From NCBI GenBank assembly GCA_030429505.1, contig JAUIFI010000001.1, positions 810,001 through 842,000 of the forward strand: a DNA stretch of 32,000 bases, read 5' to 3'. Positions within the stretch are counted from its first letter, which is position 1, and the number at the start of each line of letters is the position of its first letter. Source of the stretch: Candidatus Saccharimonadota bacterium (GTDB taxonomy: Bacteria > Patescibacteriota > Gracilibacteria > UBA4473). Below, one piece after another: positions 10,401 through 14,991 of the stretch. The notes beneath the pieces are model-generated. The model saw only the letters and a list, made by a program, of their open reading frames with translations. It was not told the origin of the DNA and made no database searches. Made by a program: the position numbers and the translations under genes.

Positions 10401-13400
10401 CTACGGACACCCTACCAAAATCTATGATCAGACCAAACAGCTCTACACCTGTCATCAATTTTCCAACGATGAAGATACCTGGCGAATTGGTTTTTTGACA
10501 CAAAGTAAAATCACCACCAACGGCAGTTGTGATTTTTCATCATGGGACAGTGGACAGGACTGGAGTTGGAGCAAAAAAACATTTGATACCAGTGGGGCAT
10601 CACCACGCATGAATCTGCTGAGCGAGTCTGAATGGGATGATGAAAATAACGACTGGTTGACGACCAGTTTCGCGTATCAGGAAGGCAGCAATACCTACGG
10701 GAATGTATCGAGTATTACTTCGCCTCTGGGAACAACGACCATTGTCTACGGGAGCGACCATATTTTCCCGCACAGCGAAACTACTCCGGCTGATGCGCAA
10801 GGCACGAGTCTCACTACCACCTATACCTACGACAACCGTTTCGGAAATAAAACGTCGGAAACTGACTCCAATGGTCATACCACGATAAGCTGCTTCGACG
10901 ATTTTGGACGACAAACCATGACCCAAGGTCCTTTGCCGGATAATCCTGTCACCTCCACCAAAGACACCAATTGTCTCACCGGAAAAAAAGATGTGATCAT
11001 GCTTTCGACCACTGACTATGTCAATGACAGCACTGGTACGTACATCGAAACTCGTCAAAGAATATCATGGGATGATAGCAATACTGCCAACTGGCGCTGG
11101 AGTCGTTCGTATCTGGACAGTTTATCCCGTCAGTACAAAACCGTATCGATGGGACCTAGCGCCACTCAAAATGTCATCACCGAAAAAGAATACGATAACC
11201 AGGGTTTTGTCGAACAGGGATCAACGCCATATTTTTGTAACGGTTTTGATTTCTCTGACTGTTCTAGTGCCGAACGCTATTACACCTCCATCGATTACGA
11301 TCTCTACAAACGCGAACTCAAAAGCACTTATCCGGACGGCACTATCACAACCAATGCCTATACCGGTAGCGCTTCCGGTCAGATGACAACTATTACAAAA
11401 GCGGTGGGTACTAGTGACGAACGAAAAGAAATTTTGCACTACGATACTTTGGGAAATCTTGCCTTACAGGAATTTTTTGATGATCAGGGCAATGCTCTTC
11501 AGACCAGTCATACCTATGACAAACTGCAACGCCAGAAAACCATCACCGATCCCAGTACTCCTGCCGCTCCAGGGGGCGTAACCGAAAGTTTTACCTACAA
11601 CTCTCTGGGACTCAAAACCCAGTTGCAGGAAACGGCGGTCATCGGAGGAAAAAGTCAGGCTACCGGTGTCGGTACAATCTCCTATGAGCATAACGATCAA
11701 GGGCTTCAAAGCACCCAGACCAATGGTAAGGGAGAGAAAACAAGTCTGATGTATGATGCCCTCGGACGAACGACCACGAAAACATTTAAAAATAGTAGCG
11801 GCACGACGACCCGAACCGTTCAGTACACGTACGATACCAGCACCTACACTGACGCCAATCCCAAAGGACGACTCACCAAAGTCGTCGTCTATCCGGGCAC
11901 CACCAGCACAACCCCCGAATCACAATACGACTTTCTCTACGACAATTACGGAAACACCAAGCAAGTCGTTCTCACCATGGACGGACAGACCTACACGTGG
12001 AAAACAGCATACCATCCGGACGGACAGGAAAGCCAGCTCACCTATCCCGACCAATCCGTACTGGAACGAACCTACTATCCATACGGCAACCTAGAATCTC
12101 TCAACCTTGCCAATTTTGACAGTGGTTCTCTCAGCCCATCGCTCAATTACGCAACCTACGAAAACTACAACGCACAGAATGCTGTCGGACAGATTACCTA
12201 TCCCTACGATCCGAGCGCAAATTGTCAGGGCGATGATTGCGCCCTTATGGCGACCTATACCTACACTCCTCAGACCGGTTTTCTGGCAACCCAAAAGATT
12301 CAAGACAAAGGACGCGGCACAACCATAGCTGACAAGAGTTATAGCTGGAATCAGCACAGTGATATTCTGGGTATCACGGACAACAATACTTTATCAAGAA
12401 ACGGAAAAAGCGCTTTTGATTATACACAAAACCTCACCTACGACTCACTAGGACGACTCACCAAAGCCGTCGGTATCTATGGTACGAAAGAATACGGATA
12501 TGACGCATCAGGGAATCTGGTTTGCAAGGGAGCTACCACCGCCTATTCCCCTTCCGGAAGCTTGCTCTGTACCGGAGGTACGACATACACCTACCAGGGA
12601 CACCAGCTTATGACAGGATCGGGAGCTAATACCGTGGGAATTACCTATGATGACAGTGGCAGCATGTATGTCAAAACACTGAATGGAAAAAAATCTGCCT
12701 ACACCTACCAAAACGATATGCTTCAGCAGACTCAGATCAGTTCAGGTGTTACGGCCAGTGTGTCAGAAACGTACCTCTATGACTATGTCGGCAAACGTCT
12801 CAAAAAAGACAATCAAACGACAAATGCTACAACATGGTACGTCATGCCGAACTATGAAATAACAACAGACAGTAATGGCACTACCCATACCAAATACATT
12901 CCCGGACCATCAGGAACAGTTGCAACCATTACGACTGACAATTCAACGGTAAACCTCTTACCACCTCCAGCCACGAGCAGTATCGCTGGTCTATGGCAGA
13001 AAACCAAAGACAATCTGACCGACCAATGGCAGGAACACATACAATCACTGCTGGCGCAAAGTTTATTCATCGCTCTTTACACGTTGCTCTTGGGAGGAGC
13101 TTTGTGGCTCATGTTCTTGATTATCAGAGGAGCTAACACACAAAGTTTGTTGGGAAAAATGAGACGAGGGCTTATTGAAACCCTGCACCGCAGACAATGG
13201 CTGTCTCATGGAACTGCCCGAAAGCTGGCTCGTCAGCATACCACTGACATTGCTCGACGATCACCGTGGATGAAGTGGGTGTCGCTTGTCTTAATCATGG
13301 CAACGCTGACCGGATGTTCCAATCCAGCTGGCTTACAAAGCAGTATTCTCCAATTATCCAAGACAGAAACGACCTCAGGAACCTACCCTGCAAGCGCCCA

Positions 13401-14991: not shown

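Follow-up and report, generated by a model that had tools for sequence, protein, structure and literature searches.

A predicted membrane-topogenic and processing module at the shell/plug junction of an SpvB-RHS toxin with a Sec signal

What are a hydrophobic helix, a strongly basic loop and a lipoprotein-type signal doing deep inside an RHS toxin, immediately before the core domain that plugs its shell? The question is raised by a gene in a window of 32,000 nucleotides from a Candidatus Saccharimonadota bacterium (assembly GCA_030429505.1, contig JAUIFI010000001.1, positions 810,001 to 842,000), the window being the whole stretch of DNA analysed here. The gene encodes a fused Tc-BC-like RHS cocoon toxin with a Sec signal, in which a segment of 152 amino acids (aa) stands between the RHS shell and the RHS core. 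With moderate confidence we read this segment as a membrane-topogenic and processing module, which would stop the exported chain in the membrane, restart its export and present it to the lipoprotein signal peptidase LspA for a cut at Cys1952. Topology and signal assignments in this work are based on hydropathy, charge and pattern rules; structures were modelled with AlphaFold2 (AF2). The gene, the elements of the segment and the two flanks are as follows, in window coordinates.

7462-14991, + strand: whole gene, 2509 aa, one uninterrupted open reading frame (ORF) (ORF list, translation, Pfam, NCBIfam, AF2)
12892-12939, + strand: last RHS shell strand KYIPGPSGTVATITTD, aa 1811-1826 (AF2 strand, model residues 907-927)
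12940-13050, + strand: linker and amphipathic helix, aa 1827-1863 (AF2 helix from aa 1841; equivalents in homologues)
13051-13125, + strand: first transmembrane (TM) helix, TM1, a predicted stop-transfer helix, aa 1864-1888 (hydropathy, both AF2 models, conserved position)
13126-13269, + strand: basic loop, predicted cytoplasmic, aa 1889-1936, with two short helices (charge, AF2)
13270-13314, + strand: putative internal type II signal peptide, aa 1937-1951 (lipobox pattern, length of the hydrophobic region, AF2)
13315-13317, + strand: Cys1952 codon TGT, predicted lipidated +1 residue (sequence, host Lgt and LspA, host lipoboxes)
13318-13401, + strand: flexible tether from Cys1952 to the core, aa 1953-1980 (confidence below 50 in both AF2 models)
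13402-13728, + strand: RHS core (plug and aspartyl autoprotease), aa 1981-2089, starting at F1981 (TIGR03696)

An earlier, sequence-only reading of the locus had placed the ORF, the last strand, the helix, the loop, the M1937-C1952 signal and the start of the core at F1981, and on re-translation all its coordinates and residues were correct. It had also judged that the segment is not YD repeat. Two AF2 models were made, one of aa 900-2095 using an alignment of 38 homologues and one of aa 1781-2095 alone. In the larger model the mean predicted local distance difference test score (pLDDT) is 81 and the shell lies mostly above 90. Residues 1828-1973 are helical throughout with pLDDT of 25-69, and confident beta structure is found on both sides of them. 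The strand at aa 1811-1826 aligns with the last shell strands of homologues and of RHS2 (PDB 5KIS_B); from this strand to the core is about 35 aa in RHS2 and about 170 here. When the PDB was searched by sequence, the flanks alone could be aligned, and around 135 aa of the stretch are missing from every solved RHS structure. The segment is thus not ordinary shell. It gave no Pfam or NCBIfam match, either in this protein or in six relatives.

TM1 is 25 aa long with a 19-residue Kyte-Doolittle mean of 2.35. The loop that follows (48 aa) contains 11 Lys/Arg against 2 Asp/Glu, a net charge of +9. In the smaller model the amphipathic helix and TM1 form one long helix, and within the insertion confidence is highest in the two helices of the loop (pLDDT 84-93); we note that the loop looks like a small helical domain of the cytoplasm that might have its own partner. 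The second hydrophobic helix stops exactly at G1951, and the 28 residues that follow Cys1952 are disordered. The hydrophobic core of the second helix is only about 13 residues long and its best 19-residue mean is about 1.0, the length of the hydrophobic (h) region of a signal peptide rather than of a full membrane span. The surrounding sequence has the tripartite layout of a substrate of signal peptidase II (SPII): an n-region RRSPW-MK, an h-region WVSLVLIMAT and a lipobox LTG-C. A PROSITE-style lipobox pattern matches once in all 2509 aa, at M1937-C1952. What sets this signal apart from a standard lipoprotein signal is its location, since it is not N-terminal but begins at residue 1937 of 2509.

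Two sets of relatives were compared. The first comprises the 120 nearest homologues, mostly SpvB/FG-GAP/RHS proteins of about 2000-2500 aa. The second was obtained by searching 1.84 billion cluster representatives (50% clusters) with a profile of the region and taking the best 150 matches (E about 1e-61 or better), 137 of which were new. One or two TM-like helices are found at the equivalent position in 29 of the 120 nearest homologues, and at least two pre-core helices in 123 of the 137 new representatives from among those best matches; we therefore rejected the idea that the insertion is an oddity of one lineage. The element sits in the same kind of protein, with an SpvB-type N-terminus in 65 of the 71 full-length representatives found by the profile and an N-terminal signal-like segment in at least 77 of 99 full-length proteins that have the helix pair. 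The placement is also specific. In the 120 homologues the density of TM-like peaks per 1000 aa is 2.6 over the last 150 aa ahead of the core and 0.041 in the shell body, a roughly 64-fold difference. The loop between the helices, with a median length of 13 aa, has a net positive charge in 111 of 123 representatives; its mean charge is +3.4, and that of the 20-aa flanks is +1.1 and -1.3. An alignment with the closest homologues had been proposed as a check on whether the insertion is conserved, and it is. The sequence-only reading had further considered that the insertion might be both common and already annotated in characterised RHS proteins. The first of these is true and the second is not: as judged from predicted helices, the module is widespread in uncharacterised SpvB-RHS proteins, unannotated, and absent from any characterised member found.

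The nearest relatives of our protein are only about 30% identical to it, and a search for related loci using the single protein returned three unrelated RHS cores only. Pairwise comparison of the loop gave E 7e-5 against the loop of P0009 and 2e-4 against that of P0002, which indicates that at least the long-loop subgroup has a common origin. A motif of the form R..[EQ]S..G[RK].R ... WL...TA can be seen in this subgroup (our loop with P0002, P0007-P0009 and P0027). On a FastTree phylogeny calculated from shell and core columns only, presence of the module requires 7 changes compared with 26 expected in shuffles, and none of 500 shuffles gave a value as low. The module is not confined to one clade, as at least five changes are forced on the tree. 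A trait that is scattered yet clustered would fit modular exchange at the C-terminal end of RHS genes. Taxonomic placement of the module-bearing relatives, available for part of them only, gave cyanobacteria, Leptospira/Leptospirales and metagenomes.

In the 123 representatives the second helix ends in a strict lipobox (48), another Cys (29), an AxA motif (25) or a weaker small-x-small motif (21). The relatives with a lipobox (about 48) are tripartite, with an Arg-rich n-region and a Gly/Ser-rich stretch after the Cys, which lies a median of 17 aa beyond the last charged residue; the distance from the Cys to the core has a median of 33 aa, similar to a lipoprotein tether. Across 257 proteins the lipobox pattern occurs 1.87 times per 1000 aa before the core and 0.156 times elsewhere, about a 12-fold enrichment. 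In the class lacking the Cys, AxA is present at the pre-core site in 54%, compared with 6% of shell windows. Two peptidase motifs enriched at one position in diverged relatives constitute the strongest argument that processing actually takes place. For the second helix we prefer a cleavable internal signal peptide, of type II (lipobox) or type I (AxA), to a permanent arm of a hairpin. Processing would be carried out by LspA in members with a lipobox, such as our protein, and by signal peptidase I (SPase I) in the others.

The host has the enzymes for such a reaction. Its genome (one contig, 1,023,206 bp, 94.7% complete, 38.7% G+C) encodes LspA (PF01252, once), two Lgt homologues (PF01790) and SPase I. 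A crude scan identified about 24 N-terminal lipoprotein-like signals, in which the commonest lipoboxes are LAGC (4), LTGC (3) and LVGC (3); one of these signals continues C-S-N-P, exactly as at Cys1952. The internal lipobox, which the sequence-only reading had called textbook, is therefore credible, as the host has Lgt and LspA and itself uses this form of lipobox. No Omp85/BamA or LpxC was found in the host genome, while BamA was found in all diderm control genomes. The closest named relatives of the Fpg protein of this genome are from Peregrinibacteria, Magasanikbacteria and Parcubacteria. The host is most likely of the CPR/Patescibacteria type (CPR, candidate phyla radiation) and has a single membrane, and an exported cocoon would then sit on the cell surface.

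From these elements we propose the following sequence of events. The N-terminal signal would start export, and the SpvB, propeller and shell part of about 1800 aa would fold outside the membrane. TM1 and the Arg/Lys cluster after it would then arrest translocation, leaving the Arg/Lys-rich loop in the cytoplasm, until the internal lipoprotein signal re-engages Sec and exports the core, the Gly/Ala-rich region, PT-HINT and HNH. Lgt would lipidate Cys1952 and LspA would cut before it. The result would be a cocoon on the outer face of the producer's membrane with two anchors, TM1 on the shell and a lipid on the 28-aa tether of the plug. The chain would be severed just upstream of the plug, which, once self-cleavage after H2089 had also taken place, would be left as a small lipoprotein of its own. 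The four predicted cuts (N-terminal signal, Cys1952, after H2089 and HINT) would give up to five pieces. There is precedent for cleaved parts that remain assembled, since the RhsA cocoon is cut into three pieces that stay together (PMC8765631). One end of the cocoon is sealed by the RHS core, which spirals inwards, and the other is closed in BC cocoons by the propeller (PMC8765631). An anchor at the shell/core junction would therefore turn the sealed pole towards the membrane and the propeller gate outwards, away from the producer. That the insertion projects outside the shell is argued indirectly: a second RHS protein of the same genome has an insert of about 300 aa at the equivalent junction, and about 420 aa of cargo already need room in the lumen.

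Several points weigh against this proposal. We found no described precedent for Lgt and LspA acting on an internal signal after an exported domain of 1900 aa. Some relatives belong to hosts with two membranes (cyanobacteria, Leptospira), where an anchor in the inner membrane leaves the route of delivery unexplained. There is also a hydrophobic region on the far side of the core.

13729-14106, + strand: post-core Gly/Ala-rich hydrophobic region, aa 2090-2215, up to four segments (hydropathy, composition)

This region contains 32 Gly and 34 Ala in 143 aa (2090-2232) and starts at the predicted aspartyl protease cut. A post-core hydrophobic segment is found in 133 of 152 homologues with the helix pair and in 58 of 91 without it. 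Residues 2090-2112 are as hydrophobic as TM1 (2.28 compared with 2.35), and in SGS1 predicted TM helices sit folded inside the shell, not in a membrane (PMC9935623). Hydrophobicity by itself therefore does not settle the matter. On which side the toxin ends up would depend on the behaviour of the post-core segments during Sec export; four segments are an even number, with which the toxin would stay outside.

The alternative that survives best is an uncleaved out-in-out hairpin that tethers the intact cocoon, its lipobox or AxA motif being unused. This was the first choice of the sequence-only reading. TM1, the positive loop and the N-terminal signals fit it equally well, and the 21 relatives with only a weak small-x-small motif after the second helix are in its favour. 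An out-in-out topology fits the N-terminal signals and positive loops of the relatives. The second arm fits less well: a hydrophobic core of only about 13 aa is short for a permanent span, and both the enrichment of two peptidase motifs at one spot and the canonical arrangement of n-, h- and c-regions are hard to explain if nothing is cut. We regard the uncleaved hairpin as unlikely, and on the length of the h-region and the lipobox and AxA endings we prefer cleavage by LspA at the internal lipobox, which had been offered only as an alternative to it.

A second possibility is that the helices are stored in or on the cocoon and insert later into the target membrane to assist the toxin in crossing, a role proposed for the TM domains of prePAAR effectors and for the helices of SGS1. 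SGS1 does hold predicted TM helices inside its shell, T6SS (type VI secretion system) Rhs effectors use TM helices to enter targets, and the low AF2 confidence of the insertion would be compatible with such a role. However, a hydrophobic helix followed by an Arg/Lys cluster arrests in SecYEG as a stop-transfer sequence, and a Sec-exported helix with the length and hydropathy of TM1, followed by such a cluster, would be expected to do so. Storage would also give no role to the positive loop, to the lipobox or AxA motifs or to a tether like that of a lipoprotein, and would add to the cargo of an already occupied lumen. We consider it improbable, and more so than the hairpin.

An internal translation start at M1937, yielding a separate lipoprotein of core plus toxin, was also suggested by the sequence-only reading and did not find support. 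The ATG at 13270 is indeed followed by a textbook lipoprotein signal, but the 15 nt upstream of it contain no Shine-Dalgarno-like motif, of 54 relatives of the lipobox type only 12 have a Met nearby, the reading frame of the shell runs on unbroken into this ATG, and the conserved TM1 and loop would go unexplained; the probability of such a start is very low. Lowest of all is that of chance hydrophobic filler or a functionless degenerate linker, which we reject because, despite the low sequence conservation of the helices themselves and the lack of any matching family model, more than 100 clusters at 50% identity or less keep a constant order of elements and charge bias, similarity between loops is recognisable, and the density of TM peaks, the clustering on the tree and the motif enrichment all contradict it.

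In order, the protein consists of a Sec signal, SpvB, an FG-GAP propeller, the RHS shell, the pre-core module, the RHS core, the Gly/Ala-rich region, PT-HINT and HNH; the domains outside the junction are these.

7462-7569, + strand: N-terminal Sec-type signal peptide, aa 1-36, with MKK, a hydrophobic core and AYA|A (Kyte-Doolittle, sequence)
7624-8184, + strand: SpvB/TcB N-terminal domain, aa 55-241 (PF03534, E 7e-13)
8569-9741, + strand: FG-GAP/VCBS beta-propeller, about aa 370-760, boundaries approximate (PF13517, E 7e-23; PF01839)
14152-14556, + strand: PT-HINT autoprocessing domain, aa 2231-2365 (PF07591 at aa 2246-2365, E 8e-19; motif positions)
14800-14928, + strand: HNH nuclease toxin motif, aa 2447-2489 (PF01844, E 2e-7)

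The N-terminal signal reaches a Kyte-Doolittle peak of 2.01 at aa 6-24, and its putative cleavage site AYA|A was assigned from the sequence. TIGR03696 (NCBIfam) matches at aa 2006-2089 with E 1e-22. The core aligns with those of TccC2, TccC3, RHS2 and SGS, and carries SAD and DPSGH motifs at the cleavage region of TccC and RHS2, from which self-cleavage after DPSGH2089 is predicted. A TIGR03696 core after a YD-repeat shell, followed by a variable C-terminal toxin with predicted autoprotease motifs, identifies an RHS polymorphic toxin; SpvB (PF03534), the propeller (PF13517), a closed cocoon and TcdB2-TccC3 as the top Foldseek match place it structurally with the Tc-BC fusions. No PAAR domain was matched by Pfam, and the N-terminus is a Sec signal followed by SpvB, so the protein does not belong to the prePAAR/PAAR Rhs effectors. 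PT-HINT (PF07591) is annotated in 14 of the 29 nearest homologues with pre-core helices and in 5 of the 91 without (counts from the homologue table). This excess suggests that the membrane module and a second release protease are functionally linked.

The RHS gene, with 47-54% G+C, is richer than the genome as a whole (38.7%) and than the next gene (15077-17326, about 30%). In a sample of 300 genomes of about 1 Mb from the host phylum, 18 encode RHS cores, most of them in open frames of about 1600-3000 aa; in this lineage of reduced genomes, large RHS toxins are thus no rarity. Pre-core helices were found in none of the ten RHS loci examined from this sample (L014-L023), and the module is therefore not a trait of the host phylum. 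Taken together, the contrast in G+C and the same-phylum RHS loci without the module indicate that the gene was probably acquired horizontally from outside the phylum. The TcA families PF18276 and PF03538 had no match in the host genome, but they had none in any control genome either.

The second RHS gene lies outside the window at about 260.8-268.4 kb of the genome. Its insert has weak, sub-threshold similarity to Peptidase_M26_N (E 4e-5) and to the GLUG motif, both surface-protein domains. Downstream of this gene are orphan core-plus-toxin cassettes that begin inside the insert, as well as small multi-TM ORFs that are possible immunity genes. The shell/core junction thus seems to be a permissive insertion point. 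In the window, no small immunity-like ORF directly follows the toxin gene (14992-18431); the next ORFs on its 3′ side are 15077-17326, for a 749-aa AAA_13 protein, and 17955-18431, for a DUF4265 protein. Just upstream of the RHS gene, in a low-G+C stretch, there is a separate ORF for an HNH endonuclease of 247 aa (6501-7244, - strand). Further along are genes for a VWA-domain protein (18520-19872, - strand) and a VirD4/TraG-like type IV coupling protein (22982-25471), which may be parts of a mobile or secretion-related island beside the toxin.

We tentatively propose, at somewhat less than even confidence, that the protein represents a large, undescribed class of Sec-exported SpvB-RHS toxins in which the producer's own signal peptidases (II or I) cut the shell from the plug after stop-transfer and re-initiation, giving a membrane-anchored three-piece cocoon with a separate, often lipidated plug. 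How Sec-signal SpvB-RHS "BC-only" toxins are displayed, safely held and released is a question for which the module offers a concrete and testable mechanism, made up of an anchor at the sealed pole with the propeller gate outwards, a peptidase cut that frees the plug and an optional lipid anchor. The module may also explain why members with the helix pair frequently have an added HINT releasing domain. If the proposal is correct, it would tell how toxins on the TcdB/TcaC-like export route are displayed and released, the missing part of that route, and would be a rare bacterial case of an internal lipoprotein signal. Internal signals of giant exported proteins would join the known substrates of Lgt/LspA and SPase I, and a CPR-like bacterium with a very small genome would be seen to carry a surface-displayed nuclease toxin that was probably acquired horizontally.

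In the literature searched, which mostly did not extend to subscription papers and is thus no proof of novelty, we found no description of a pre-core hairpin or of an internal lipobox. A TcdB/TcaC-like export pathway for SpvB-RHS toxins is named in a comprehensive comparative survey of polymorphic toxins from 2012, which makes no mention of a pre-core module in the passages searched (PMC3482391).

The closest known structures are those of TcdB2-TccC3 (PDB 4O9X/6H6G) and YenB-YenC2/RHS2, which share the SpvB domain, propeller, RHS shell, core plug and C-terminal toxin after the core. TcdB2-TccC3 is the best Foldseek match of our model, with query TM-scores (TMq) of 0.64-0.67 and 0.66 for the top hit, and the Tc-BC cores align with E of about 1e-11 to 1e-12. 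Canonical BC proteins work with a TcA translocator and are not known to carry Sec signals. They have the short path from shell to core seen in RHS2, to which our protein adds an N-terminal signal and the membrane module.

RhsA of P. protegens (PDB 7Q97), a T6SS prePAAR effector, resembles our protein in combining an RHS cocoon with TM helices, and its cocoon is processed into three associated pieces (PMC8765631). Its TM helices, however, are N-terminal, Eag-chaperoned and meant for the target membrane, its export is by T6SS and its cuts are autoproteolytic; in our protein the helices are pre-core, the chain has a Sec signal for export and the predicted cut would be made by a host signal peptidase. 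Mosquito SGS1 (PDB 8FJP) is alike in its Tc-like RHS shell with predicted TM helices, and the cores align. The SGS1 helices lie after the core and after the autoprotease site, inside the shell, such that their counterpart is aa 2090-2215 of our protein and not the pre-core module; SGS1 has no signal peptide, basic loop or lipobox.

Bacterial teneurin-like proteins (PDB 9IFO/9PT5) are Sec-exported YD-shell toxins thought to be displayed on the surface of the producer, and those of Gram-negative bacteria carry SPII lipoprotein signals (PMC13018210). In them the lipoprotein signal or S-layer anchor is N-terminal, and none has been described between shell and core. The nearest mechanistic analogue that we found is eukaryotic astrotactin-2, an unrelated protein, processed by the signal peptidase complex of the endoplasmic reticulum and with no lipidation. 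Astrotactin-2 has a luminal N-domain and two TM helices joined by a cytoplasmic loop, and it is cut after the second helix.

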